From: a virus
Direction: 5' to 3' (one strand)
Virus record (IMG/VR): IMGVR_UViG_3300035181_001114
Coordinates: 1 to 45,226 of that record
DNA: 45,226 nucleotides
In this document: one piece after another, positions 4,478-41,830 of the stretch
Layout of the letters: each line of letters starts with the position of its first letter
How positions within the stretch are numbered: the first letter of the stretch is position 1
Made by a program: the position numbers and the translations under genes
The notes under the pieces: generated by a model
Told to the model about the DNA's origin: nothing
Database searches by the model: none
What the model saw: only the letters and a program-made list of their open reading frames with translations

Positions 4478-5008
4478 ATGGAATTACCAGTTAATGGTTC
4501 AACGTTATATACCGTCTCTAATGTTACGTTATATACAAAACAGGGTACATCTTTTATTGCGGGTGGGAATTTTACTACTACATCAGGCGTGCCAAGTCAA
4601 GAATTATTACCAAGCACTAACACAGTTTTGGGCTATTACAACGGTCAAATGCTTGCACGCGCTGCGGGTGACGGCAGTGGTAGTTTTGCTGGTTTGACAG
4701 CTGGCGCACTAATTAATTTTGACCCAGCATCAAGTGATACTGGACAAGCCAAGTGGAATGGCTTTGTTATTTGTGATGCAGGGCTTAAAGCGCCTCTTGC
4801 TGTTGGTACAACATTTCCCGGCTCACTGCAAATTGCTACCCCATTGCAAGGTTGGATTTTAAGACAACAATATTTATATGCTGGTGGTACTCCTTCATCC
4901 GATGCCACTGTTGTTAATACCGCTGTAACTACAACTGTAGGCGTTACATGCGTACAAACACAAACGATGAACTCTAGTGGTTCAACTGAAACAATTTTTT
5001 CATACTAG
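4478..5008 (+). CDS. Putative head decoration/accessory protein
   Basis: 176 aa with AAGGAG RBS (4464-4469). It lies immediately upstream of the capsid gene, as lambda gpD precedes gpE. Function is inferred from position only. Confidence 0.3.
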   Translation: MELPVNGSTLYTVSNVTLYTKQGTSFIAGGNFTTTSGVPSQELLPSTNTVLGYYNGQMLARAAGDGSGSFAGLTAGALINFDPASSDTGQAKWNGFVICDAGLKAPLAVGTTFPGSLQIATPLQGWILRQQYLYAGGTPSSDATVVNTAVTTTVGVTCVQTQTMNSSGSTETIFSY

Positions 5009-7113: not shown

Positions 7114-8660
7114 CAATTATTAATGCTGTTAAACAAGCCAAGCAGCCGGATAAATTGCCTGCTGAAATGCTTACCAATAATACGCAAAAAACCGTAAAAG
7201 TTAGATCGCCAAAACCACGTTTTGAGGTAAGCACGGTAATAGATGAATTTCAGGGCATGAATGAAAATCTAATAGTCAATGATGGCGAAAAAGGTGTAAT
7301 TGGTACAGCAAACCCTTATCAATTTAATTTGTTTAGTGATTTAATTACTAATCCATCATCTATTAGTATCTCTGAATTTCAAAAAATGGTTTACACGCAG
7401 CCAATATTATCAGCTGGTTTAACTATTTTAAACAATTTAATTAAAAACGAATTTGGCTCATTTCAACATAAAAATAAAAAATATCAAGAATTTATTCAAA
7501 TCATGTTTGATAATTTTGATCGCCCTTTTGATGAGATTTTAATAGACATGCAAACCGCATGGTGGGCAGGTTTTTCAGTTGGCGAGAAAAAATATAAAAG
7601 CGATGGACGTTATGTATATATCACGGATATTGAGCCACGTCCGGCACAGTCTATCATATATCGTGTCGACTCACAGGGTCATCTAAAAGATGATGGCATT
7701 ATACAATATTATTTTAATAATTTGTGGATAGGCTACGGTAATTTATTATCATTTAATTCAATTGGGCCAAATGGTCGGGTTACTCCAAATCCTTACGCAT
7801 CACGTGGTGATTTTGATTATCCTTGGCGGACAGTATGGGCGCAGCCAATTGGTACAGTTATTATACCCAAAAACAAATGCGTACATTTTGCTTACAAGGG
7901 CTTAGATGGTTTGACATCACCTTATGGTCGTAGTTTATTGCGTGCCGCATATGATTCATACTTAGTGCGATCAGATATGAACAGAATATTACACAATAGC
8001 GCAAATTATAAAGCATCTCCAATACCAGTGGTTATTATAGATCCGAACCAAGCTAACGATCCAAGCGGTTATGATGTATTTGAAGAAACTGAATTTGCAT
8101 TGCAAAACCTAGGGGTTGCGGGTGGTGGAAATTCTTATCTATTATTTAGAGGTACAAAAGAATCTGTAATAATGGATAAAATGGATAGTACAGCTAACTT
8201 ACAAGATTTAGTTGGTGTTAGTGAATATTTTGACAAGATGATGTTAACAGCAATTTTATTCCCAAGCGAATTGGCTGGCTTATCTGATAAAGGTAGTTAT
8301 GCGCTAGGTAAAACACAACAGGATTTATTGGGTAGAAATGTTACATCAATGTGCGAAATGCTACGTAACTGTATCATTGAACAAGTAGTTAAACCAACCT
8401 TGCAATTAAATTTCAATGAACAAGAAGATTTTGGCAGTTTTGAAGTTACTGATAATGTTGCGGAAGATGTGGCGCTTAATTTAGACAAATTAAATTCATT
8501 ATTGAATTATGGCATTAAATTAAAACCCGGTGCAATTGCGGCAATGCTTGATATTAGTGAGGATTCAATTGAATCATGGAATAATCCAGTGGTTGATAAT
8601 AACCCTGATAATCGGGGTATAAATACTAATTTTATGCGTACTAGAGGTATTGAATCATGA
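7095..8660 (+). CDS. Portal protein (Mu gp29 / DUF935-like)
   Basis: 521 aa. The segment PILSAGLTILNNLI...DMQTAWWAGFSVGEKKY...ITDIEPRP resembles the conserved core of Mu-type portals, and it co-occurs with a MuF-like gene. Judged by eye only. Confidence 0.5.
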   Translation: MGMDTMTIINAVKQAKQPDKLPAEMLTNNTQKTVKVRSPKPRFEVSTVIDEFQGMNENLIVNDGEKGVIGTANPYQFNLFSDLITNPSSISISEFQKMVYTQPILSAGLTILNNLIKNEFGSFQHKNKKYQEFIQIMFDNFDRPFDEILIDMQTAWWAGFSVGEKKYKSDGRYVYITDIEPRPAQSIIYRVDSQGHLKDDGIIQYYFNNLWIGYGNLLSFNSIGPNGRVTPNPYASRGDFDYPWRTVWAQPIGTVIIPKNKCVHFAYKGLDGLTSPYGRSLLRAAYDSYLVRSDMNRILHNSANYKASPIPVVIIDPNQANDPSGYDVFEETEFALQNLGVAGGGNSYLLFRGTKESVIMDKMDSTANLQDLVGVSEYFDKMMLTAILFPSELAGLSDKGSYALGKTQQDLLGRNVTSMCEMLRNCIIEQVVKPTLQLNFNEQEDFGSFEVTDNVAEDVALNLDKLNSLLNYGIKLKPGAIAAMLDISEDSIESWNNPVVDNNPDNRGINTNFMRTRGIES

Positions 8661-29386: not shown

Positions 29387-29802
29387 TGATTAACTCAAGA
29401 AAAATTGAAGACCTGCATCCAAAAGTGCAGGCTTTATGCAATCAATTTATTGCTAAATGTAAAGAAGAAGGCATTACAGTAATTATTACTGCAACATATC
29501 GAGACTATGAATCACAAAATGCGTTATATGCGCAAGGTCGTACTGAACCGGGCAAAATTGTTACTAACGCTAAAGGTGGGCAATCTTTTCATAATTTTAA
29601 AGTTGCTTTTGATTTTTGCCCCATGCTTGATAATCAAGCTGCTTGGAATGATACTCTTTTATTTATTAAATGTGGCCAAATTGGTAAAAATATCGGTTTA
29701 GAATGGGGCGGTGATTTTAAATCTATAAAAGATATGCCGCATTTACAATACACTGCAGGATTAACTTTAGCTGATTTTCAAGCTGGTAAAACTATTGATT
29801 AA
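29386..29802 (+). CDS. Endolysin, M15-family peptidoglycan peptidase (VanY / L-Ala-D-Glu peptidase-like)
   Basis: ITATYRDYESQNALYAQGRT...GGQSFHNFKVAFDF...EWGGDF...MPHLQY follows the Peptidase_M15 His/Asp/His layout. It is the last gene of the rightward block. Confidence 0.8.
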   Translation: MINSRKIEDLHPKVQALCNQFIAKCKEEGITVIITATYRDYESQNALYAQGRTEPGKIVTNAKGGQSFHNFKVAFDFCPMLDNQAAWNDTLLFIKCGQIGKNIGLEWGGDFKSIKDMPHLQYTAGLTLADFQAGKTID

Positions 29803-30148
29803 GATATTTAATTAATAATTCTTTAGCTTCATACCAGCCATAGCAAACAAAAGTTAAAAAACCTTGGGATTTTACATATTCCAAAAACTCTTTTTGTTCT
29901 TTAGTTAATTTGTTTTTACCATATTTCATTTCTATGTAAAGTCCTGAATATTCTCCACGTTTTGCAGGTAAAAATAAATCTGCTATTCCAGCTTTCATGC
30001 CTTGACTTTTTGCAATCTTGGCCTGAACTGGTGTCAAATTGACACCGTTTAATGAACAATGTAACCATTTTAAATCAGGATATACATTAATTGCTAAGGT
30101 TGTCCAATATATCAATGATGCCTGTTCTTTAGATTCGTTATGCTGCAT
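29792..30148 (-). CDS. VRR-NUC domain nuclease
   Basis: GIADLFLPAKRGEYSGLYIEMKYGKNKLTKEQKEFLEYVKSQGF matches the VRR-NUC PD-(D/E)xK core (D...E.K...Q). Its 3' end overlaps the endolysin 3' end by 11 nt. Confidence 0.75.
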   Translation of the reverse strand: MQHNESKEQASLIYWTTLAINVYPDLKWLHCSLNGVNLTPVQAKIAKSQGMKAGIADLFLPAKRGEYSGLYIEMKYGKNKLTKEQKEFLEYVKSQGFLTFVCYGWYEAKELLIKYLNQ

Positions 30149-30152
30149 GTTT

Positions 30153-30362
30153 TTACGCTTTTATAAGATCAATAGTTCGAATTGTTTTAGTATGTTCTTT
30201 AATATATCCCATTTGCTTAAGTTTAGTTATAATTTTACGCGGCTCCTTAACTCCAAAATTTTCAATTATAAAAATATATAAGTTATCGCGACTGATCTTT
30301 CCATTTGATTTTTTTAAAAAATCAATAATTGGTTTATAATAGAATTCTCGTTTTATTGGCAT
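30153..30362 (-). CDS. Hypothetical protein
   Basis: 69 aa. The start overlaps the upstream stop by 1 nt. Confidence 0.5.
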   Translation of the reverse strand: MPIKREFYYKPIIDFLKKSNGKISRDNLYIFIIENFGVKEPRKIITKLKQMGYIKEHTKTIRTIDLIKA

Positions 30363-30619
30363 TATATTTTCTTTCCATAATTTTTGCTAAATACATAAAA
30401 TAATTCTAATTGATTATCTAACTCTAGTTTACGCGGAATGCGTTCAATCCAAAATTTATCTGGGTTCGTTGAGTTAAATATAATTGTAAACTGCGTAACA
30501 AAATCTATTTGAATCATAATATCTTGTTCTTGATTTAAAATTGTAGTAACATTAATTTGCTCCCAATCATCTTGATTTAAACATGCATTCCATAGATCAC
30601 ATATTTGACTTTGCTTCAT
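30362..30619 (-). CDS. Hypothetical protein
   Basis: 85 aa with an AAGGGAG RBS upstream of ATG 30619. Confidence 0.5.
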   Translation of the reverse strand: MKQSQICDLWNACLNQDDWEQINVTTILNQEQDIMIQIDFVTQFTIIFNSTNPDKFWIERIPRKLELDNQLELFYVFSKNYGKKI

Positions 30620-30642
30620 TTAAAAACTCCCTTAAAAATAAA

Positions 30643-32193
30643 TTATTTTTTTAATTTAATCATATAATTGTTCAATTGTTTATTAATTTGTCCGCGTATT
30701 TTATGTAATGTAGTTTTATTAATGGTATTACAATTACCGCTATCATATACCGTTATTAATTCACCTATTATTTCATCATCAAAACTCACTTGGTCATGAA
30801 GCACATATTCACCATCGATAAAATCAACATTTAAAAAACCTCTAGCAGACTTTTTAGTACCAGAATCAGTTTTTGGCTCTTTAAATATTTCTCGTTTTTC
30901 ACCATTTACAATGCCACAAGTTGATTTTACTGCCATGCCAAAACTATCTCGGGTAGAGTATTGATATGTATAACTTCCAATGCCAAACACAACATTACTG
31001 CTCGCAAAACCTTTCTTCTCAAGTTTATCTAATATAATGTTAGCTCGCTCAAGTGTGATACTGTCGCCATAAATTAAACCAATATGGGTGTCTAAAACTT
31101 TATAGCCTTTTCCGTTAATTGTACCGCCAAAAGTATCCCATAAGCATTGTATGGCTCCTTTCCCTTCTGGAGTATCTGGGTAAAATTCCTCATAATTTCC
31201 ACTTGGCAAGCGTGTTTCTTCTAGTTTGCCGCATATAATATCTACAGGATCGCCGGAATCAGGTCTAATAACCACTTTACCATCTCGTGACATGATTACA
31301 TCTTTTAGTTTTGGTAAATAATCTGTTATAACTTGCCAAAAATCCCAAGTATCACTGACTATTGAAACTATTTTTTTTGGATAAGTTTTGGTTATTAACC
31401 TCTCAAATAATTCTATCTCATTATCTTTGCCATTAAGGCTCATAACGGAATGTTCTGTTGCTGGAACACTACACCCAATGGTAGTGTGTAAATCAGCATT
31501 ATAATAATACTGCAACATAGGAATTGCCGGAATTGTGTCAGTGCCTAAAAAACAAGTTAAATGCGCCATTCCTGACGTTGCGGCATCCATGTGCCCACTC
31601 ATCCCCCTAAAGCTAAAATCATGTGCTTGGAAATCGACTGCGCTTAAATCTGAGCCAGTTTTAACTGCATAGTGAATTAATATCTTTTTATACTCAAAAG
31701 CTATAGTTGCGTTAGTGCATAATTTCCAAATATCTGCCGACATCCATGTTTCGAGAAAATTAGTAAGCCAATAAAATTCCGATAACGTATTGCATATTGT
31801 CAGTATGGGAACTTTCATATTAACACGTGATCCCTCTGGTAAAGCTTTAATATGAATTGGTAAATAACCCAATTTATGGAGCGCCTCAATATGATCGAAT
31901 GTTATTGCATTTTTACCCAATCCGTGTTCAATAATTTGTTTATAATCACTTAAAACCTCATTAAGAGGTAATTTAAAAAAGTTATCCTCAAAACTATCGT
32001 GTAAATTTTTAATAAAATATTGAATTCCAAACACAATCATTTTCCCATCGTAAAAAGGGCTTTGTTTACAAGTTGATAATTTATCGCTCCTAGGTGTTAA
32101 ATTACTGTAAACCAATTCTGTGCCTTCTGGATATTGAAATTTATGTCCAATTTTGTAAAAATCACACATATACATAGGATTTAATTTAATCAT
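30643..32193 (-). CDS. Nicotinamide phosphoribosyltransferase-family enzyme (Nampt/NadV-like; candidate Namat of NARP1)
   Basis: 516 aa with family landmarks CDFYKIGH, HLTCFLGTDT, VPATEHSVM, IRPDSGDP, IYGDSIT and VVFGIGS. The start overlaps the stop of the Prs-like gene (TAATG). Confidence 0.9.
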   Translation of the reverse strand: MIKLNPMYMCDFYKIGHKFQYPEGTELVYSNLTPRSDKLSTCKQSPFYDGKMIVFGIQYFIKNLHDSFEDNFFKLPLNEVLSDYKQIIEHGLGKNAITFDHIEALHKLGYLPIHIKALPEGSRVNMKVPILTICNTLSEFYWLTNFLETWMSADIWKLCTNATIAFEYKKILIHYAVKTGSDLSAVDFQAHDFSFRGMSGHMDAATSGMAHLTCFLGTDTIPAIPMLQYYYNADLHTTIGCSVPATEHSVMSLNGKDNEIELFERLITKTYPKKIVSIVSDTWDFWQVITDYLPKLKDVIMSRDGKVVIRPDSGDPVDIICGKLEETRLPSGNYEEFYPDTPEGKGAIQCLWDTFGGTINGKGYKVLDTHIGLIYGDSITLERANIILDKLEKKGFASSNVVFGIGSYTYQYSTRDSFGMAVKSTCGIVNGEKREIFKEPKTDSGTKKSARGFLNVDFIDGEYVLHDQVSFDDEIIGELITVYDSGNCNTINKTTLHKIRGQINKQLNNYMIKLKK

Positions 32194-33050
32194 TATTCTT
32201 GATCTCCTTCTTGAAATACCACTTGTTCAACTTCTAGGCCTGATATATTATTGTATTTGTTCACAATAAAATTATAACTATCTTTATTAATAATTTTTAA
32301 TTTGTTGATTCCCTCTTCTATTAAGTTATCAAAACCGTAAGTACCAAATTGATGATAAACCATCAGTTCGATTTCAATATTAAGCCTTTCTGAGTGTTCA
32401 AACTCTTTTCTCAATGCTTTTGCGCATTCTACAAATGTACGGTTGCCATCGCCAATATCATCACAAATTAAAAATGGTTTATATAAATCAATTTTATAAG
32501 GCATACGGAATGCGTCCAATTCTAAATGAGGCGTCCCAAATTTATTTCTAACTTTATTAAAAGTTATCATTTTATCATCCGAATAATAATAATGATGTCT
32601 GGCCGATGCATCGGGAAACACAATATTATATTGCGATTGCAATTCCATTAAATTATAGCGGTCTATATTTATATAGTTCTTGCCAAATGCATAATAATTG
32701 TGACAATGTAACGCCTGGGTTCTTACAACATCAAAATTTAAAAAAATGATTTTCGTAAAATCTATAAATGCAATTGATTGTCCGGCCTCAAATACTCGAT
32801 CTTGTCTAGCGTATGGCAAATAAGGTGCATCTAAAATAATTTGAATTCTATCGCCATACGTATGCCTAATTGCCGCCGCTTTTAACATTGGTATCATAAT
32901 ATCTTTTTGCGTGAAGTAATCCCAATGGATATAAACTATTCTGTCATATATGCGTTCTGTTAACGTGATTTCATACTCTCCTGAATTATGTTGTTTTATT
33001 TTAAATATATTTATTTCTTTTGTTAGTTTCAAAAATTCGTTTTCGTTCAT
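32193..33050 (-). CDS. Ribose-phosphate pyrophosphokinase-like enzyme (Prs-like; candidate Adps of NARP1)
   Basis: 285 aa with LPYARQDR, VFPDASA and the PRTase ribose-phosphate loop LICDDIGDGNRTF. ATGA overlap with the upstream ORF. Confidence 0.75.
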   Translation of the reverse strand: MNENEFLKLTKEINIFKIKQHNSGEYEITLTERIYDRIVYIHWDYFTQKDIMIPMLKAAAIRHTYGDRIQIILDAPYLPYARQDRVFEAGQSIAFIDFTKIIFLNFDVVRTQALHCHNYYAFGKNYINIDRYNLMELQSQYNIVFPDASARHHYYYSDDKMITFNKVRNKFGTPHLELDAFRMPYKIDLYKPFLICDDIGDGNRTFVECAKALRKEFEHSERLNIEIELMVYHQFGTYGFDNLIEEGINKLKIINKDSYNFIVNKYNNISGLEVEQVVFQEGDQE

Positions 33051-33352
33051 TCTTTTACCTTCACTTTCATTAAAACATAAGCGTAATCGTCATTTTTCAA
33101 TTCAGGAGCAATTTCTCCTGTTTCGGATCTGCCAGAAAAATGTTCATATTCTCCAGTATGTAGATTACTGTTTCCAATCCACAAAACCTCACCCTTGACA
33201 ACATGCTCGGTATAAAGTTTTATATGCGTAAATTTAATATTATTGCCTAATTCATTAATAAAATGAATAGATTTTGATTTGCTAAAACCATCCATACGAG
33301 GATCTTCTATTATTGATTTTATAAACAATAGCTTTTGCTCTTCAAATGTCAT
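33047..33352 (-). CDS. Hypothetical protein translationally coupled to the Prs-like gene
   Basis: 101 aa. Its stop overlaps the Prs-like start (ATGA). It contains VKGEVLWIGNSN, which recurs in the micro-ORF upstream. Confidence 0.55.
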   Translation of the reverse strand: MTFEEQKLLFIKSIIEDPRMDGFSKSKSIHFINELGNNIKFTHIKLYTEHVVKGEVLWIGNSNLHTGEYEHFSGRSETGEIAPELKNDDYAYVLMKVKVKE

Positions 33353-33456
33353 TGATTTTTTCCTTTAACTGTTGTATTTCCATAATCAATTCTTGCTATT
33401 ATACTGCTGCCAATCCATAAAACTTCACCTTTGATAATATTTAATAGAATTATCAT
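33349..33456 (-). CDS. Micro-ORF (35 aa), partial paralogue of the 101-aa ORF
   Basis: MIILLNIIKGEVLWIGSSIIARIDYGNTTVKGKNQ, with ATGA overlaps at both ends. At the DNA level, CCAATCCAyAAAACyTCACCyTTGAyAA is shared with ~33172-33199. Confidence 0.3.
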   Translation of the reverse strand: MIILLNIIKGEVLWIGSSIIARIDYGNTTVKGKNQ

Positions 33457-33617
33457 TTTTTAATCCCTTTTAATAAAAACCACATTGCCCCAAACAAACT
33501 TGGCATCATAGTTGCATTAAACCTTGATTCTTTGCACCTTTTTATCGCAATAGGCAATGCGTGTTGCCAATTGGTAGCGTAACGCACGTCTTCATAATAT
33601 AAGCCTTGTCTGCTCAT
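33453..33617 (-). CDS. Small hypothetical protein (54 aa)
   Basis: ATG 33617 follows an AAGGAG RBS and encodes MSRQGLYYEDVRYATNWQHALPIAIKRCKESRF... It is below the ORF-track cutoff. Confidence 0.45.
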   Translation of the reverse strand: MSRQGLYYEDVRYATNWQHALPIAIKRCKESRFNATMMPSLFGAMWFLLKGIKK

Positions 33618-33627
33618 TTTTTACTCC

Positions 33628-33840
33628 TTAAGATATATTTAATAAAACACAATACTGATTTTTACCATGGATACGCAAATTAATATGATCAACAGAATCC
33701 AATAAGGCAAAATCATGATCATAAATAACAACTGGTAACTCCGGGTCTTCATTTTGGAGTATTGTAATCAATTCTTTAACTGTCATTTTACATACACTCA
33801 CTTTCACAATACGGGCACATATCATCAATTGGGGTTCCAT
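33628..33840 (-). CDS. Hypothetical protein (the start may be the internal ATG 33786)
   Basis: 70-aa track ORF. A 27-aa Cys-rich micro-ORF (33788-33871, MKSLKPQPCKHGTPIDDMCPYCESECM) overlaps its 5' part and ends just before ATG 33786. Confidence 0.45.
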   Translation of the reverse strand: MEPQLMICARIVKVSVCKMTVKELITILQNEDPELPVVIYDHDFALLDSVDHINLRIHGKNQYCVLLNIS

Positions 33841-33867
33841 GCTTACATGGTTGTGGTTTTAATGATT

Positions 33868-34047
33868 TCATTTGCCCATTATCCAACAAATATCATCGCT
33901 ACCCTCTTCTCCATCGCTGGTCATTTCTGGGTCAACGTCTACATTTTCTATATACCAACCTTCATCATCATAACCGATTCTAGTTTCCAAATCACCGTAA
34001 GTTTTTTTGATGTTTTCAAGGTCTTTTATTAATTCGCTAATTTTCAT
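33868..34047 (-). CDS. Small acidic protein (59 aa)
   Basis: MKISELIKDLENIKKTYGDLETRIGYDDEGWYIENVDVDPEMTSDGEEGSDDICWIMGK. One codon below the ORF-track cutoff, with an ATGA-type overlap downstream. Confidence 0.5.
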   Translation of the reverse strand: MKISELIKDLENIKKTYGDLETRIGYDDEGWYIENVDVDPEMTSDGEEGSDDICWIMGK

Positions 34048-34075
34048 TTTATAATTTCTACAAATTGATTAATAT

Positions 34076-34324
34076 TTAGGAAAAGCCATCGCCAGAGCCA
34101 TCGCCAGAGCCATAGCCATCGCCATAACCATAACCATAACCAGAGCCATCGCCAGAGCCATCGCCATAACCATAACCATAACCATAACCATAACCAGAGC
34201 CAGAGCCATCGCCAGAGCCATCGCCAGAGCCATCGCCATCGCCATAACCATAACCATAACCATAACCAGAGCCATCGCCATAACCAGAGCCATAACCATA
34301 TTTAATAAATGCAATTTTATTCAT
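34076..34324 (-). CDS. Gly/Tyr/Asp/Ser dipeptide-repeat protein
   Basis: GGAG lies 5 nt upstream of ATG 34324 (the track starts at GTG 34330). After MNKIAFIKY the product contains only G, Y, D, S and a terminal F: blocks of GYGYGY alternate with GDGSGDGS. Confidence 0.6.
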   Translation of the reverse strand: MNKIAFIKYGYGSGYGDGSGYGYGYGYGDGDGSGDGSGDGSGSGYGYGYGYGYGDGSGDGSGYGYGYGDGYGSGDGSGDGFS

Positions 34325-34721
34325 TTTCACTCCAATTTGGAATTGAATTAATATTATTAATACATTTTTTAGAACATATCAATATTTCAACCACTCCCAA
34401 CACAAGATGATTATCTGTAGGAACGCTTAATTTACTCTCTGACTTATTTTTTACTCCATTTTCTGCTAGATCAGATAACTCTGTTGCACCAGACCATTTC
34501 CAAATTCTTCTACATTTTGAAAGAATAGCATTTGCGTGCCCAATATATCCAGCTTTTTCAATTTGTATAATTTTTGCAAAAAATACTCCAGCTGCAAATG
34601 TGCGAACGATTGCTATTTTATTTAAATAATTAGCATAGATTGATGAAGATTCACTGTTAACTTCTTCATCAAGTAAACGATCTATTATTTTATCCAAAAT
34701 GTTAACACGTAAATTTGACAT
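34317..34721 (-). CDS. Hypothetical protein downstream of RecT
   Basis: 134 aa with an AAGGAAA RBS. No recognisable motif. Confidence 0.55.
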   Translation of the reverse strand: MSNLRVNILDKIIDRLLDEEVNSESSSIYANYLNKIAIVRTFAAGVFFAKIIQIEKAGYIGHANAILSKCRRIWKWSGATELSDLAENGVKNKSESKLSVPTDNHLVLGVVEILICSKKCINNINSIPNWSENE

Positions 34722-34741
34722 TTTATTTATTTCCTTTAAAC

Positions 34742-35584
34742 TTATTTCAATTCAGTTAAAAATGCTTCTTGTTCTTGCAATTCAGCCAATGTTTTACCTA
34801 CAAAGCAATTATCGATTAAAGAGTCCATAATCCTTATTGCATCGGCAGAAAATTTTCTAGATATAACATCTTCTTTGGATTTTCTCAATGTTCTGATAGA
34901 TGTTTGCAATTTTAGCATTTGATTCATTTCATCAAGACTTAAATTTAAATCTTTAGATTCTGGATGTTCACTAACAATTTCTGATTTATTTTCATTTAAT
35001 ACACTTTCAAATTTTTTAGGCTCAACATTAACAGCATTGGGATACGGATTTACATAATCTTGCACTTCTTCAGCGATTTGCATACCTTTTAAAACATCGG
35101 CAAAAGAATCGCGTAATGCAAATGCTCTATTACGCATTTGTAACATGCGTTTTGGATATTGCTTCCAAGGCCCCTCTTTTCTAGTTAAACCAGCTAATGC
35201 CGCATCTTCCATGCTAAAATACGTTGTTTTAGGTTTTTTGCCTTTTCTTATAACTGTACATTGCCCCGGAATTGATTCGTCAATGTCGTCTAATAGCCCA
35301 CTGGCCATTACTACAGCTAATGCCGCATCACCCCAGAGGGTAGGCATTCCATTAATTACAGCAATTCCCTGCAATGATTGCATTAAACCTAGCCCTAAGC
35401 TACCACCAAAATCCCACGCTGCAAGTATAGCGCCCGGATTATTTATATAATTTTTGGGCACCATTCCAGACTTAGAATAACGCTCTGCAAGATCTGTGGC
35501 TTCTGTCAAATTTTGTGGCAAAAGAGTAAAGTATTTTTTCTCTGCTACTTCTGTTTTTGTGTTAGTATTTTGTAATTCATTCAT
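34742..35584 (-). CDS. recT: RecT-family single-strand annealing recombinase
   Basis: GGSLGLGLMQSLQGIAVINGMPTLWGDAA...GPWKQYPKRMLQMRNRAFALRDSFADVLKG matches the RecT core. It is paired with an exonuclease gene. Confidence 0.8.
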   Translation of the reverse strand: MNELQNTNTKTEVAEKKYFTLLPQNLTEATDLAERYSKSGMVPKNYINNPGAILAAWDFGGSLGLGLMQSLQGIAVINGMPTLWGDAALAVVMASGLLDDIDESIPGQCTVIRKGKKPKTTYFSMEDAALAGLTRKEGPWKQYPKRMLQMRNRAFALRDSFADVLKGMQIAEEVQDYVNPYPNAVNVEPKKFESVLNENKSEIVSEHPESKDLNLSLDEMNQMLKLQTSIRTLRKSKEDVISRKFSADAIRIMDSLIDNCFVGKTLAELQEQEAFLTELK

Positions 35585-35587
35585 ATA

Positions 35588-36424
35588 TTAATTTCCTAAA
35601 AAGTTTAAATATTTTTTCATTTTATAAGTCGATAATCTGGCTTCTCTTTCTCGTACCTGAGGGTTATACCATTCTCCGCTATTTTGTGCATGTACATATT
35701 TGCTAAGAGCATAATCAAAAACTTTAAAACCAGTATCCGCTTGCACCTCATTCATTTTTATAAACGCCAAATTAAACGGTTCATTTTTGCTGCAAAATAC
35801 AAATCTAAAAATACAAGGTTTACCAAAATGCTTTTCTGCTACAAATTTGTAAAAAGCAAATTGCAGCAAATAATCATAATCTGCTATTGCATCATCAAAA
35901 TCGTTATCGTTATCTTTAGATGTTGATTTTATATCGTCAACATACACAACATTTGCATGCTCTATGCAACGATCAAGCATTACCTTTAATTTTGTGCCAT
36001 TTTCTAAATCTAATACAATAACCACCTCGCTATAAATATTTATAGCATCTTGATGATATTTACTCCATTCGTATTGTTCCGGCAATTCGGCTGCTATAGA
36101 TTTACACAATAAATGCTCATCTACACTAATTAGTGACAATCCAGCTTCTTGCGCTATAGCATGATTTGCAATGCCAATTTTAGTGCTTTTTCTACGCTCG
36201 CCAACCATAAAGTTTTTATCAAATTCTTCTGGCTCTAAAACTAAACAATGTATTGCCCGTCCAACCACAAAATGGCGATCCTCTTCTGGCTTTTCAACAG
36301 TTTTTGCAATATATATTTTATAAAATAATTTTGCATCTGCAAAAAAATCACGAAGTTTTGAGCTATTAATTGCATCTATTTCGCAATAATTTTTAAAAGA
36401 TATTTTTATTAGTTCTGTTCTCAT
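35588..36424 (-). CDS. PD-(D/E)xK exonuclease (RecE/exonuclease VIII C-terminal-like)
   Basis: FVVGRAIHCLVLEPEEFDKNF and VYVDDIKSTSK (D..D-x-K) fit PDDEXK exonucleases that partner with RecT. It is the first gene after promoter module A. Confidence 0.65.
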   Translation of the reverse strand: MRTELIKISFKNYCEIDAINSSKLRDFFADAKLFYKIYIAKTVEKPEEDRHFVVGRAIHCLVLEPEEFDKNFMVGERRKSTKIGIANHAIAQEAGLSLISVDEHLLCKSIAAELPEQYEWSKYHQDAINIYSEVVIVLDLENGTKLKVMLDRCIEHANVVYVDDIKSTSKDNDNDFDDAIADYDYLLQFAFYKFVAEKHFGKPCIFRFVFCSKNEPFNLAFIKMNEVQADTGFKVFDYALSKYVHAQNSGEWYNPQVREREARLSTYKMKKYLNFLGN

Positions 36425-36532
36425 TTTGTTTATCTCATTTTGTTTTTTGCTGGCAAACCATTTACCAGCTCATGACCGTATTATGCCATAACTAAAATCT
36501 AAATGTCAAGTCTTTTTTACATTTATTTTTAA
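36421..36532 (-). promoter_or_regulatory. Early leftward promoter/operator module, copy A
   Basis: On the minus strand: TTGACA (36509-36504), 18-nt spacer, TGgCATAAT (-10 hexamer at 36485-36480), then palindrome GCTGGTAAATGGTTTGCCAGC (36469-36449), RBS and ATG 36424. An 84-bp core is identical to copy B. Confidence 0.6.
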
Positions 36533-36570
36533 ATTTTGATTGTGCGACGTAAAATGTTTTATGTGAAACA

Positions 36571-36861
36571 TTAATTACCAACAGTTATCCAACTAAAATA
36601 CCCGGTGTATTGGCAATTGCTTTCATCGCGAGACACTAAAATTGAAGCGCCCCCGTTTGTGCCAATTGCGGCAAATGCATAAATAGGTAATCCACTGCTT
36701 CCCTGAGATGTCACAGAAATTGCAAAAGATGTGGCGCTAGTGTATTTTTGAGGCAAATTAATTGTTATGCTACAACCATTAATTTGTCCCGAACCGTATT
36801 GCGTAAAGTCTGCAAAAACTGATGAACATAAAAAACATAATATTATAAAAAATTTTATCAT
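36571..36861 (-). CDS. Small secreted protein of unknown function
   Basis: 96 aa with signal peptide MIKFFIILCFLCSSVFA. It is the last gene of the 39.9-36.5 kb operon. Confidence 0.55.
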   Translation of the reverse strand: MIKFFIILCFLCSSVFADFTQYGSGQINGCSITINLPQKYTSATSFAISVTSQGSSGLPIYAFAAIGTNGGASILVSRDESNCQYTGYFSWITVGN

Positions 36862-38504
36862 TAAATAAACTCCACACTTAAACCATTTGCTTTTAATTTA
36901 GCTACAGCCTGTATTATTAAATTTTGCTTTTCAGCGCCGAGACGAAGATTTTGAAAAATTAATTGTGGCTTTTCTACTTGTTCCAAACTTTGTGTAACCT
37001 TAACAACAGCTTCAGATTTATCAGTAACCTCATAGTTATTTTTAATTATTTCCATATCTGCTTGAGCTTTTTTAGCTAATTTTTCCCGATTTTCCATATC
37101 TTTTTTGATATAATCAGCAGCAACTTCATAATCTGTAAATTTTTCAATTGGATAATTAGCATAAGTATAAGATGTCATATAATTATTATTAAGATGCTCA
37201 ATTAAACGTGTGCGGCTCTCAATTTGAGTGTTTTTTAATTCACTCTGAATACGTTCATAATCTTGTTGTTTAAACAATGCTTCAGCTCTATTATCAATAT
37301 CAATTTTGATTTTTTCTAAAGTCCATTTTTGTAAAAAATATTCGTCTGAACAAACTAATAAACCAGCATATTTTGAATTTAACATAAATTTAATTGATGC
37401 TTGCTTCAATAGCTCATCAATTTTTACGCCTTTTGCGGCTTTTGCAATTGCTTCAATTTTTTTCAATTCTGCGTCATATTTACTAATATAATTTTCAATT
37501 TCAGCATCACCTTTTTTAATTTTATTTTCTAAATCAGTGATGGGAGCTTTAATCTCTTTAACAATTGCAATTCTGCGGTCGCTTATCTCTTTTTGAAATT
37601 TACGCAATTTAGCCAATGTATCAGTTAATATTTCTTTAGTTAAATTAGTGCCTAATTCTTTAATTGGCATAATTACTTGATTAATACTTTCTTTAAATTT
37701 GTTTTCATCAAATGTAATTTCTGGTTGTTTAAATACAATATCAAATGTAATTTCTGTGTTTAATTGATAAGTATTGTTAATAATTTCTGGTTGATTTGTC
37801 ATAATAATTTGTGAATCCTCTTCTTTAAATGAGATTAAGTTTGATATATCGCATGCCATTAGAATGCCGTCAATATTAATTTTAGCAACTGTCGTGCCAA
37901 ATATCATGCGTTGAAAAACCCCTGTTTTACCATAATTTGTAGGTTCATTGCCCACATATTTTACAATCATGCCTGAATGCATAAAATCTAATTTTGAATT
38001 GACTGTTTTAATTAATCTTAATGTCATGTTACAATCTGCCAACGCTCTATGCGCTAATATATCTGATATATCAATTTTCATGTGTTCGCATGCTTTAGTT
38101 AATTTTATCCATTTTGTTGATTCAGTAAATTGTTGATACCATTTCATTACACATATACTTGATGCTCTAAATGTATCAAATGCTTTTGCATCATTAGCGC
38201 ATTGCATTAATAATCTTATATCATAATCTGCATTGTAGATAACAATTTTTTTATTATACAAAATGTTAAAAATTTCGTCTTCAATCTCAATAAACGTAGG
38301 AGAATTTGCTACCATTTCATTAGTAATACCATGTATTTTAATAGCTTCTTCAGGAATGGGATTAATAGGTTTAACTAACGTATTAATTAAAGGCTTCCCA
38401 TTACTATCTATTATTGTAATTTCGCATATTTCTGCTTTACTATCTAGTCCTGTTGTTTCAGTATCTAAGATTAGTGTATTTTCGTTTAAAATTATTTTAT
38501 CCAT
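36861..38504 (-). CDS. DnaQ-like DEDDh 3'-5' exonuclease fused to a long coiled-coil C-terminal region
   Basis: LILDTETTGLD (Exo I), VIYNADYDIRLL (Exo II) and HRALADCNMTL (Exo III, His type) lie in the first ~170 aa. The remaining ~370 aa is K/E/I-rich and helical. Confidence 0.8.
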   Translation of the reverse strand: MDKIILNENTLILDTETTGLDSKAEICEITIIDSNGKPLINTLVKPINPIPEEAIKIHGITNEMVANSPTFIEIEDEIFNILYNKKIVIYNADYDIRLLMQCANDAKAFDTFRASSICVMKWYQQFTESTKWIKLTKACEHMKIDISDILAHRALADCNMTLRLIKTVNSKLDFMHSGMIVKYVGNEPTNYGKTGVFQRMIFGTTVAKINIDGILMACDISNLISFKEEDSQIIMTNQPEIINNTYQLNTEITFDIVFKQPEITFDENKFKESINQVIMPIKELGTNLTKEILTDTLAKLRKFQKEISDRRIAIVKEIKAPITDLENKIKKGDAEIENYISKYDAELKKIEAIAKAAKGVKIDELLKQASIKFMLNSKYAGLLVCSDEYFLQKWTLEKIKIDIDNRAEALFKQQDYERIQSELKNTQIESRTRLIEHLNNNYMTSYTYANYPIEKFTDYEVAADYIKKDMENREKLAKKAQADMEIIKNNYEVTDKSEAVVKVTQSLEQVEKPQLIFQNLRLGAEKQNLIIQAVAKLKANGLSVEFI

Positions 38505-38822
38505 TTAATTACTTTCTTCAATTAGATCACAATCGTTTAAATGTGATTCATTCTTATTACATAGCCGTGTTTCACTTTCACCAATATATAAATCTAATGG
38601 TATTTCGCTATCATTTGATCTGACAATTGGTCCATGAAAATGAATATTAACACTCTGATTTTGGTTTTCATAATTTTGGGGAGTCGCTGGATTTGAACCT
38701 GCACCACACATTGTAGGACTTAATTCTTCATCCATAACAGAGATTGCTAATTTTGTAAATTCATCCTCATATTTTTTTATAATAAAATCTACACTTAAGG
38801 AAGTTTCCTTTATAATTTTCAT
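38505..38822 (-). CDS. Hypothetical protein
   Basis: 105 aa with start/stop overlaps on both sides. Confidence 0.5.
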   Translation of the reverse strand: MKIIKETSLSVDFIIKKYEDEFTKLAISVMDEELSPTMCGAGSNPATPQNYENQNQSVNIHFHGPIVRSNDSEIPLDLYIGESETRLCNKNESHLNDCDLIEESN

Positions 38823-39160
38823 TTTATTTCTCCTAAAATAAAGTTGTTATAATGCTCTTGGGCCACTGCTTGTGCTTCTTCTATTGTATTAAAAAGCCCC
38901 ATTGGCTCCGGGACTTCATAACCAGGAGTATCATAAATATTTAAGATAAATCTACCGCTATATATCCTCAAGTTTATGCGTTCTGGTGTAATTGCATATT
39001 GTTGAGCAGAGTTAAATTCATTCCATTCTAACGCTTTTACTTGCGGGGTCAAACAACATATCTTAGCTATAATATCATATTTAAGATTCTCGGATATTTC
39101 ATCATCAAATTGATTGATTAAATCAATAAGTTTTTGTTTCTGGACTTTAAATTGTTTCAT
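38819..39160 (-). CDS. Hypothetical protein
   Basis: 113 aa, adjacent to the small membrane ORF. Confidence 0.5.
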   Translation of the reverse strand: MKQFKVQKQKLIDLINQFDDEISENLKYDIIAKICCLTPQVKALEWNEFNSAQQYAITPERINLRIYSGRFILNIYDTPGYEVPEPMGLFNTIEEAQAVAQEHYNNFILGEIK

Positions 39161-39328
39161 TTAAAATTCTCCATAAAACATTAAACTTAATCCAATTATG
39201 AAAAATAATGGAAGGAAGAATATTAGCCAAAAAAAGATTAAATCTTGATTAGTTGCATTAATATGAATTAAATCCAATATGCCTATAAAAATAATTAATT
39301 GTTGGAGAAACATAATTTTATTTATCAT
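39161..39328 (-). CDS. Small hydrophobic membrane protein (50-55 aa)
   Basis: (MINKI)MFLQQLIIFIGILDLIHINATNQDLIFFWLIFFLPLFFIIGLSLMFYGEF has two hydrophobic segments. ATG 39328 overlaps the upstream stop (ATGA). Below the ORF-track cutoff. Confidence 0.45.
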   Translation of the reverse strand: MINKIMFLQQLIIFIGILDLIHINATNQDLIFFWLIFFLPLFFIIGLSLMFYGEF

Positions 39329-39582
39329 TTGTTATACTCTTTATTTAAATATAAATATTTCATAGTGCGGCCTTTACGTTGTATAAATAGTTTCCTACCT
39401 AATTCAAAAGCTTTATAACATTTGCGTCTGCTAATCCCCTTATCGCGATAATTTTCTTCTGCAACATTTTTAATCTTATGATATCGGGCAACCACACATT
39501 CAGAGTAAAATTCCATTAAATTTTCTTTAAGTTCAGTTAAATTTTTCATCTCATTATTCCGTTTCGTTAAATTAAAAATCAA
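39325..39582 (-). CDS. Hypothetical basic protein
   Basis: 85 aa, Lys/Arg-rich. Confidence 0.5.
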   Translation of the reverse strand: MIFNLTKRNNEMKNLTELKENLMEFYSECVVARYHKIKNVAEENYRDKGISRRKCYKAFELGRKLFIQRKGRTMKYLYLNKEYNK

Positions 39583-39782
39583 TTAATCGTTAAATTTATT
39601 ATATTATTGTCAATATTAAAAACTTTATAAAAAAAATATGTTTTATCTAATTTAGTATTATTTTCAAAATTTTGCTCAACATTAACAAACTGTATAATAC
39701 GCTTCAAGCTTGTTGTTTGATACTTTTTTTGAAGTGTATCAATATTATATTGCTTATCATTAATTATTATTGTTTTCAACAT
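39579..39782 (-). CDS. Hypothetical protein
   Basis: 67 aa with an ATGA-type overlap downstream. Confidence 0.5.
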   Translation of the reverse strand: MLKTIIINDKQYNIDTLQKKYQTTSLKRIIQFVNVEQNFENNTKLDKTYFFYKVFNIDNNIINLTIN

Positions 39783-39871
39783 TATAAATTCCTAAATTTA
39801 TCGTTATTCCAATAATTGCAATGTTTTGCAATTTTAGTGTTATATATTTTTTCGTCAATAATTTCTTTCAT
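39782..39871 (-). CDS. Leader micro-ORF (29 aa) at promoter module B
   Basis: ATG 39871 occupies the same position in the repeat as the exonuclease ATG in copy A, with a GAGGT RBS. It encodes MKEIIDEKIYNTKIAKHCNYWNNDKFRNL. TAATG overlap with the next gene. Confidence 0.35.
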   Translation of the reverse strand: MKEIIDEKIYNTKIAKHCNYWNNDKFRNL

Positions 39872-39980
39872 TTTGGTTACCTCATTTTGTTTTTTTGCTG
39901 GCAAACCATTTACCAGCTCATGACCGTATTATGCCATAACTAAAATCTAAATGTCAAGTCTTTTTTACATTTATTTTTAA
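39868..39980 (-). promoter_or_regulatory. Early leftward promoter/operator module, copy B
   Basis: TTGACA (39957-39952), 18-nt spacer, TGgCATAAT (-10 hexamer at 39933-39928), and palindrome GCTGGTAAATGGTTTGCCAGC (39917-39897). 39897-39980 is identical to 36449-36532. Confidence 0.6.
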
Positions 39981-40032
39981 GTTTTTTATTTAAAAAATTA
40001 ACTTTAATGATCGCAATGGTTTATATTTGTTT

Positions 40033-40060
40033 TTGCATTTAAATAAATTTGTGTTATAAT
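40033..40060 (+). promoter_or_regulatory. Rightward early promoter (TTGCAT-16-TGtTATAAT)
   Basis: TTGCAT 40033-40038 and TGTTATAAT 40052-60. It is followed by the perfect palindrome TTAACGTTAA (40067-40076), then the RBS and GTG 40091. Confidence 0.5.
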
Positions 40061-40090
40061 CATTACTTAACGTTAAAAGGATAATTTATT

Positions 40091-40321
40091 GTGAAAATGA
40101 ATAAAACAAAACAAAACATATTGAAAAAATTAAAGATTGGAGAAAATAAAATATTTTTAGGTGTTATTGCAAATAAATTAAAAATAACTAGACCTACTCT
40201 TAATAAATATTTAGCTCAATTAACAGAGGAGGGGTATTTAAATAAAAAGATTAATGCTGGAATAAACGGTGGCACGATGGGAGACGCCAAATACTGTACA
40301 TTGATTGTGAGATTAAAATAA
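40091..40321 (+). CDS. Winged-helix/HTH DNA-binding regulator
   Basis: 76 aa. LGVIANKLKITRPTLNKYLAQLTEEGYLNKK is a typical HTH plus wing. It is the first gene of the rightward early operon, divergent from promoter module B. Confidence 0.6.
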   Translation: MKMNKTKQNILKKLKIGENKIFLGVIANKLKITRPTLNKYLAQLTEEGYLNKKINAGINGGTMGDAKYCTLIVRLK

Positions 40322-41685: not shown

Positions 41686-41714
41686 TTGACAAATAGAAAA
41701 TCTCAAGGTATAAT
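41686..41714 (+). promoter_or_regulatory. Perfect-consensus sigma70 promoter (TTGACA-17-TATAAT)
   Basis: TTGACA 41686-41691, a 17-nt spacer and TATAAT 41709-41714, in the 158-bp gap after the replication gene. Confidence 0.7.
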
Positions 41715-41720
41715 GCAGTC

Positions 41721-41813
41721 TGTACTTTGAATTTATGTATCGAAACGGATAAATTGAATGTACGCATTCATCGAAAAACCCCGCTCCGTTTCAATTCTCA
41801 GTGGGGTTTTTTT
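41721..41813 (+). ncRNA. Candidate ~93-nt structured leader RNA / sRNA ending at an intrinsic terminator
   Basis: The RNA runs from the predicted TSS (~41721) to the U-tract at 41813. It contains hairpin UGAAUG-UACG-CAUUCA (41755-41770), pairing of 41742-49 with 41785-92, and a terminator hairpin. No ORF. Confidence 0.45.
41778..41813 (+). terminator. Rho-independent terminator
   Basis: ACCCCGCU (41778-85) pairs with AGUGGGGU (41800-07), with one G-U pair and a 14-nt loop. It is followed by U7 (41807-13) and preceded by A5. Confidence 0.55.
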
Positions 41814-41830
41814 ATTTAAAAAGGATAATC

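Follow-up and report, generated by a model that had tools for sequence, protein, structure and literature searches.

A PeSL-like pair of early promoter-leader cassettes in an uncultivated non-T4 phage family: evidence for concerted evolution and a leader hairpin confined to one sub-clade

Promoter-early stem-loop (PeSL) cassettes have been described in T4-like phages (Arbiol et al. 2010, PMC2839356; Comeau et al. 2014, PMC4122927). Each PeSL unit is about 100 bp long and combines a strong sigma-70 promoter with a stem-loop; it begins at a stop codon, includes an AT-rich tract and ends in an SD with the start codon. Such cassettes recombine with one another, which leads to modular gene shuffling (PMC2839356, PMC4122927). 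Stem-loops at the 5' end are treated as an established class of stabilisers in the part of PMC7509114 that cites Emory et al. 1992 and Sharp & Bechhofer 2005, with the ompA leader and the ermC/aprE-type 5' structures in Bacillus as examples. Stabilisers of this kind are found on highly expressed transcripts. Another 5'-terminal stem-loop that stabilises its mRNA is that of the T7 gene 10 leader. Furthermore, the lac O1 operator is centred near +11, and the lambda nutL/nutR boxB hairpins lie downstream of two early promoters.

Here we compare these systems with a duplicated element of an uncultivated phage. The window, i.e. the whole stretch of DNA analysed (45,226 bp, 33.7% GC), makes up a complete virus record and carries direct terminal repeats of 127 bp. 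Neither an integrase nor a tRNA nor an Rfam family was found among the ORFs and the sequence scanned (Rfam at the gathering threshold). DNA and protein searches against cultured phages gave distant matches only (31-53%), which allow no host inference, and the sole match of the exonuclease profile in the GTDB genomes (26%) is to a Sulfuricurvum MAG and reveals no prophage or host. The collections searched contain no close cultured phage or prophage. The genes are SD-led and the promoters are of the TTGACA/TATAAT type, which argues for a host with a standard sigma-70/SD system, and a weak Rz-like spanin match hints at a diderm host. At 41686-41817, upstream of the late block, lies a perfect TTGACA-17-TATAAT promoter; the RNA after it is folded over about 95 nt (-26.8 kcal/mol, z -3.8) and has a strong intrinsic terminator at its end. 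The 76-aa wHTH gene has a rightward early promoter ahead of it (TTTGCA-17-TATAAT, 40032-40060). A few nucleotides past the -10 of this promoter, at 40068-40077, there is a perfect 10-bp palindrome, TTAACGTTAA, a candidate autoregulatory operator of the 76-aa wHTH protein.

The duplicated element is present in exactly two copies, 3.4 kb apart, termed copy A (downstream) and copy B (upstream) (Table 1). A script found the longest exact run between them to be 90 bp (36443-36532 and 39891-39980), and within it lies the 84-bp identity (36449-36532 and 39897-39980) of the original prediction. A repeat search recovered two blocks, 36438-36537 versus 39886-39985 (100 nt, 97% without gaps) and 36421-36448 versus 39868-39895 (28 nt, 93%), which are offset by a 1-nt indel in an A/T run. 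With this indel and two substitutions the similarity reaches both ATGs, in agreement with what had been reported for the stretch up to each start codon. The reading of each copy on the minus strand as TTGACA, an 18-nt spacer, TGgCATAAT, palindrome, RBS and ATG is likewise as described, the transcription start being a predicted one. Allowing up to 3 mismatches, the 21-mer dyad is found at these two sites only (expected 0.01). Beyond it, the long repeats of the window comprise a 78-bp one within the tail-fibre genes and the 127-bp terminal repeat; as the former is coding and the latter terminal, the genome has no comparable non-coding repeat, which was also claimed originally.

Both copies score 11/12 plus TG in the promoter scan and are the joint best leftward matches in the early arm, consistent with the proposal that each is a promoter/leader/RBS unit heading a predicted leftward early transcription unit. 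An UP-like A-tract lies upstream of the -35 in both. The -10 is followed by ACGGTCA, whose final A, 7 nt past the -10, is the predicted start (36473 in copy A, 39921 in copy B). In both window copies the stem begins 4 nt past this position, and across the hairpin versions it begins at predicted +5/+6. From the stem an A-rich linker leads on to GAGR and the ATG. The promoter and the ..GTCA initiation region are conserved across the phage family. Domain assignments place a PD-(D/E)XK/DUF3799 exonuclease, RecT and DUF6948 behind copy A and an RNase_T(DnaQ)-DUF1351 fusion behind copy B, which agrees with the earlier gene calls for the two operons. The 96-aa ORF that precedes copy A ends 60 nt before its -35. 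Terminator-like matches in the early region are not above chance, and the single one on the minus strand in the arm of copy A lies at 31577-31564.

Table 1. Positions of the cassette copies, their predicted elements and the surrounding features in the window.
Feature	Position	Strand	Content or basis
Rightward genes	~40,091 across ends to ~29,800	+	Replication, late promoter/leader/terminator unit, packaging, head, tail, lysis
Leftward early genes	39,871 down to 29,792	-	
Late promoter-leader-terminator unit	41686-41830		Lambda PR'-like design
76-aa wHTH gene	40091-40321		Adjoins copy B
Cassette copy B (upstream)	39868-39985	-	Divergent early control region; same elements as copy A, with start codon of 29-aa ORF; repeats, exact run, nhmmer
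Copy B promoter (predicted)	39928-39957	-	TTGACA 39957-39952, 18-nt spacer, TGg + CATAAT 39933-39928; promoter scan
Copy B hairpin/palindrome	39897-39917	-	Identical to that of copy A; fold
Copy B start codon	39871-39869	-	
Gene block between the copies, predicted to be fed by copy B	36571-39871	-	29-aa ORF, five small ORFs, DnaQ-DUF1351 fusion, 96-aa ORF
Upstream flank of copy A, position-specific	36534-36572	-	Weak AU-rich hairpin after 96-aa ORF stop, then GCACAA-type box
Cassette copy A (downstream)	36421-36537	-	A-tract, promoter, leader hairpin, A-rich linker, SD, exonuclease start codon; repeat families, exact run, nhmmer match 36567-36416
Copy A promoter (predicted)	36480-36509	-	TTGACA 36509-36504, 18-nt spacer, TGg + CATAAT 36488-36480; promoter scan
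Copy A -10 hexamer CATAAT	36485-36480	-	
Copy A hairpin/palindrome	36449-36469	-	9-bp stem, one G-U pair, 3-nt loop, from predicted +5; fold
Copy A start codon	36424-36422	-	
Transcription unit predicted to be fed by copy A	29792-36424	-	Exonuclease, RecT, DUF6948, Gly-Tyr repeat protein, small ORFs, NAD+ cassette, Holliday-junction resolvase-like gene

Of the known systems, PeSL cassettes come closest. As in that system, a composite unit of about 100 bp with the same parts is repeated ahead of unrelated early genes, the sequence of the stem-loop varies by phage lineage, and relatives differ in the genes next to the cassettes, which fits recombination between them. The downstream copies also start immediately past the stop codon of the gene before them. 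However, the window phage is not T4-like; it measures 45 kb, has direct terminal repeats and is without a close cultured relative. It has two copies, compared to about 50 in T4-like phages, where they lie in hyperplastic regions. Moreover, its stem lies in the leader after the predicted start, whereas the five PeSL classes have theirs upstream of, inside, or just before the start. Finally, there is no U-tract here, and the stem is missing from part of the phage family. By this comparison the arrangement can be classed as PeSL-like, although the phage is not of the T4 type, and its leader hairpin as clade-specific.

Relatives were collected through the exonuclease (14, at 60-85% identity) and, for further ones, through the DnaQ fusion, and the contigs were compared. 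The closest (L009/L011, hereafter L011; exonuclease 85% identical) is a complete 46.8-kb IMG/VR phage. It also has exactly two cassettes, 3.28 kb apart, and they are its best promoter matches. L014 (exonuclease 74%), L015 (68%) and L031 have two copies each, 4.2-6.0 kb apart. Two copies are thus found in four relatives whose sequence spans both positions. In L017 one copy is visible, on a contig that begins too late to cover the other position. Four Logan contigs (L016, L024, L025 and L030) have both ends inside the cassette, as happens when an assembly breaks at a repeat. No cassette was found in L019, L021 and L026, nor within the 1.4 kb of L029 (exonuclease 70% identical). Searching IMG/VR for the dyad, exact or degenerate, gave six matches, all of them coding and in unrelated phages of 56-63% GC, and the -10/initiation motif recovered from IMG/VR one true relative, the other three matches being chance promoters. 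A promoter-anchored pattern matched one unrelated contig in the JGI metagenomes and nothing in the GTDB genomes.

Wherever it is present, the downstream copy lies directly after the DnaQ/DUF1351 gene or is separated from it by a single small ORF, and the upstream copy is found at the point from which the replication genes diverge. The constant place of the downstream copy means that the duplication is old and its position fixed. On the contigs compared, it appears to predate the divergence of this uncultivated 43-47-kb phage family. Comparison with related phages therefore extends the original prediction in two ways: the duplication would be ancestral to the family, and the hairpin occurs in one sub-clade only. 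The likeness to PeSL cassettes had not been part of that prediction either.

The two copies of a genome resemble each other more than they resemble those of other genomes. Within-genome identity is 89-100% in the window, 94% in L011, 76-91% in L014 and 98% in L015; between genomes, the window copies are 74-79% identical to those of L011, 60-69% to those of L014 and about 50% to those of the L015 clade. In the comparison of the window with L011, the tally of informative columns is 17 for grouping by genome against 0 for grouping by position. Cassette conservation between the same two phages is about 80%, with values of 80% for the flanking exonuclease/RecT and 73% for DnaQ. Because the copies group by genome and the cassette is no better conserved than its flanks, purifying selection alone cannot explain the 90 identical bases. 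Recent recombination had been named beside selection as a possible source of the identity, and it is this part that the 17 versus 0 columns and the similar conservation of the neighbouring genes bear out. The pattern indicates that the copies probably undergo concerted evolution, either by gene conversion or by replacement of one copy by the other, and that the latest homogenisation in the window would be very recent. We infer gene conversion as the process, which the phage exonuclease/RecT, driven by copy A, could catalyse as an exchange between the copies; repeated independent copying of the cassette would be an alternative not formally separable from it. Concerted evolution of an old duplication, and not the hairpin, is the strongest new element of this analysis.

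Positional identity is kept only in flanking sequence that lies more than about 25 nt ahead of the -35. Here copy A and the downstream copy of L011 have a common flank with an AU-rich hairpin and a GCACAA box, and 36575-36418 of the window aligns to 10850-11007 of L011. The AU-rich hairpin lies directly past the stop codon (36553-36572 in the window, -5.1 kcal/mol; 10852-10873 in L011, -7.6 kcal/mol) and is followed by UUUU. Before the downstream copy it is conserved only between the window and this closest relative, and it is possibly a weak terminator between the two leftward units. The box, GCAC(N)GCACAA(Y)(M)(R)AAA, is found in most family members about 36 nt upstream of the -35, at roughly -77 to -60. 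Its sites are 36534-36548 in the window (copy A), 7603-7620 and 10880-10897 in L011, 5738-5755 and 10728-10745 in L015, ~3790-3806 in L017, and ~4609-4625 and ~10645-10661 in L031. Among the cassette elements of the family, only the -35 and the initiation region are better conserved than the box; it is degenerate in copy B of the window and absent from one of the L014 copies (L014b). The box could be a site for an activator or an architectural protein.

The cassettes also appear to mark points at which neighbouring genes were reshuffled. Homologues of the second and third ORFs after copy B are found in L011 behind the downstream and the upstream copy, respectively. In L011 and L014 three small ORFs lie between the downstream copy and the exonuclease, compared to the window, where the exonuclease directly follows copy A. 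In L015, L024, L025 and L031 the exonuclease precedes the DnaQ gene, and the downstream copy there heads RecT. At the divergent junction, the 76-aa wHTH gene is an insertion specific to the window phage; in L011 a 140-aa gene abuts the cassette, and L014 is without such an ORF. The first codons of the 29-aa ORF (39782-39871) weakly resemble the start of a 101-aa ORF behind the downstream copy of L011 (tblastx 44% over 25 aa, partly cassette sequence), and the 29-aa ORF may be the remnant of a longer gene.

The GC-rich leader hairpin is confined to a sub-clade of three phages, namely the window phage, L011 and L014. Its stem is formed by GCUGGUAAA/UUUGCCAGC with the loop UGG in the window, by GUUGGCAA/UUGCCAGC with the loop AUUGG in L011 and by UUGGCAGU/ACUGCCAA with the loop GUGGG in the first copy of L014 (L014a). 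The version in L014b is bulged, contains two G-U pairs and one C-A mismatch and needs the bulge to fold. The leader hairpins of the three phages have predicted energies of -11.8, -10.9, -13.7 and -10.8 kcal/mol, and the z-scores of the window leaders are -3.2 (copy A) and -2.2 (copy B). In L015 and L017 the leaders are no more structured than shuffles (z ~0), and by inspection those of L025 and L031 have no GC-rich stem. Since this distant clade is without leader structure, the hairpin is dispensable for cassette function. A palindrome in the spacer, in the style of PeSL classes, was considered for the non-hairpin clade and rejected, its inverted repeats not being above shuffles (P 0.08-0.96). 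In this clade, the cassette of L015 (5790-5850) holds several TAACTT/AAGTTA copies, in the spacer, over the -10 and twice in the leader, and AACTTT precedes the SD in all leaders. A leaderless mini-ORF at the predicted 5' end of the window transcripts, AUG AGC UGG UAA, is not conserved in relatives and was discarded.

Within the sub-clade, 93.8% of the cells are paired over eight aligned pairs from the three phages. The changes include wobble intermediates, in the pair series CG/UG/UA and AU/GU/GC, and one double-sided change; a shuffle control for such double-sided (compensatory) changes among three phages was not significant (174/500). In 4/4 distinct hairpin versions the sense strand folds more stably than the antisense strand (-11.8/-6.8, -10.9/-6.8, -12.4/-11.3 and -8.3/-4.8 kcal/mol), by 1.1-5.0 kcal/mol, since G-U pairs on the sense strand make up four of the five internal imperfections. 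The pairing is suggestive of a constraint at the RNA level, from three lineages and with the proviso that symmetric changes would also keep a DNA dyad. Selection had originally been read in two ways, as acting on a 5' RNA hairpin or on a shared operator. The wobble intermediates and the sense-strand folding mildly favour the former, and the latter fares less well.

Taken as a whole, the locus is best explained, with a probability of roughly 55%, as a pair of early expression cassettes that is homogenised by conversion and that in the sub-clade carries a 5'-proximal RNA stem-loop. The repeat, its motif content, the conserved duplication, the grouping by genome and the preserved pairing are the observed part of this explanation. 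The 112-117-bp unit would be a self-contained early expression cassette, of which copy B would start leftward transcription at the divergent early control region and copy A would re-initiate and boost transcription into the exonuclease/RecT/NAD+-cassette genes. Gene conversion, plausibly helped by the phage exonuclease/RecT, would keep the direct repeats identical or nearly so. In the window sub-clade the leader would have gained a GC-rich stem-loop 4-5 nt past the predicted start, which would protect the A-rich leader and the mRNA from 5'-end-dependent decay. Promoter activity, the start site and a role of the hairpin at the RNA level are what we infer from the motifs and the folds. Its most likely role, to which we give about even odds, would be that of a 5'-proximal mRNA stem-loop. 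As in 5' stabilisers, a short stable hairpin lies a few nucleotides from the predicted 5' end, before an unstructured leader and the SD. In contrast to them, the function is a predicted one here, and 4-5 predicted unpaired nucleotides precede the stem. Four to five unpaired nucleotides before a stem are at the edge of the range reported to be protective in E. coli.

The dyad could instead act as DNA. Under this reading, the main rival, which is possible although we consider it unlikely, the 21 bp from +5 to +25 are a lacO-like operator at which a dimeric phage or host repressor shuts off or times early transcription, and the copies are identical because they fit the same protein. As at lac-type downstream operators and phage early operators, a 21-bp imperfect, near-perfect dyad of typical size lies just past the start of a strong promoter, and it does so at both, and at exactly two, early promoters. 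Its arms change symmetrically between phages, as a co-evolving protein would also require. The small wHTH gene that adjoins copy B had been proposed to encode the partner of the palindrome. However, there is no homologue in L011 or L014, both of which keep the hairpin, so that the wHTH protein is not conserved with the dyad and is not supported as the partner. No cognate repressor and no small ORF confined to the hairpin clade were found. The 85-aa ORF (39325-39582, third after copy B) and the 113-aa ORF (38819-39160, fifth after copy B) were considered as clade-specific partners and rejected, the former having a weak match in L015 too and the latter being widespread. A repressor other than the wHTH protein is possible. 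Moreover, other promoters show no further dyads, and half-sites are not enriched. Unlike in lac-type operators, the half-site spacing varies, the distance between the TGGCA/TGCCA cores going from 7 to 9 bp in L014, and on the sense strand the imperfections (four of the five internal ones) are of the G-U type. As DNA, L014b makes a poor dyad, with 5/9 symmetric positions by eye, yet it folds as RNA. A role as RNA that differs from stabilisation seems improbable to us: the hairpin, with a conserved UGG at the 3' side of its loop, would be a cis-acting signal at both early promoters, read by the transcription complex or a small phage protein (nut/put- or RegA-like), and would coordinate early expression with the lambda PR'-like late switch, the pair being kept identical by the RecT/exonuclease that it drives. 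Like lambda nut, the window has two near-identical small RNA hairpins from two predicted early promoters, together with a lambda PR'-like late unit. The differences from lambda are the lack of a boxA-like element and of an N-like ORF rich in Arg, a longer stem (8-9 bp), loops that do not resemble GNRA, and early terminator-like matches that are not above chance.

As an attenuator or processing signal of the PeSL type, for which we see little chance, the hairpin would act on read-through from copy B, trimming or insulating it before copy A, and would be passive in copy B itself. PeSL stem-loops did reduce downstream expression (PMC2839356). The window has no convincing intrinsic terminator between the two units, and read-through transcripts would therefore carry the copy A hairpin internally. 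However, the stem is followed on the transcribed strand by an A-run and not a U-run, and it is therefore not a canonical terminator; nor did the scan call it terminator-like. Since the hairpin lies within the cassette's own transcript, it would attenuate that transcript too. RNase III requires stems longer than 9 bp. Equally doubtful is that the hairpin has no function of its own and is a neutral passenger of a recently copied or converted promoter cassette. Conversion alone would explain the perfect identity in the window, and the distant clade is without the hairpin while its cassettes are otherwise equivalent. Against this, three phages that differ at 17-32 cassette columns keep a stable stem in the same place with other sequences and loops, and the hairpin is a GC-rich island in a 34% GC genome. 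Very unlikely, finally, is a sigma-54-type -24/-12 element (TGG-N9-TTGC) hidden in the dyad, which would provide a second, activator-dependent start in the leader. The sense strand of the window and L011 does read TGGYA-N6-TTGC with the canonical GG-N10-GC spacing. In L014, however, the spacing is 2 nt longer, so that the element is not conserved while the stem is; a TGGCA/TGCCA dyad resembles the motif by construction, and there is no enhancer-binding protein among the ORFs scanned.

If the locus is indeed a pair of conversion-homogenised early expression cassettes, movable and self-homogenising promoter-leader cassettes would not be peculiar to T4-like phages. They would also structure the early region in an uncultivated family unrelated to those phages, where they would drive recombination genes and NAD+-restoring counter-defence genes. 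The locus would also be a clean natural case of concerted evolution of a regulatory element, in which each copy follows its genome rather than its position. A ready series for separating RNA- from DNA-level function of a promoter-proximal dyad exists in the natural G-U variants, and the cassette is a candidate for a compact strong promoter/leader. The repeat also breaks the short-read assemblies of these phages: short-read contigs of the family are fragmented at the cassette, and the repeat can mimic circular elements of 4-6 kb.
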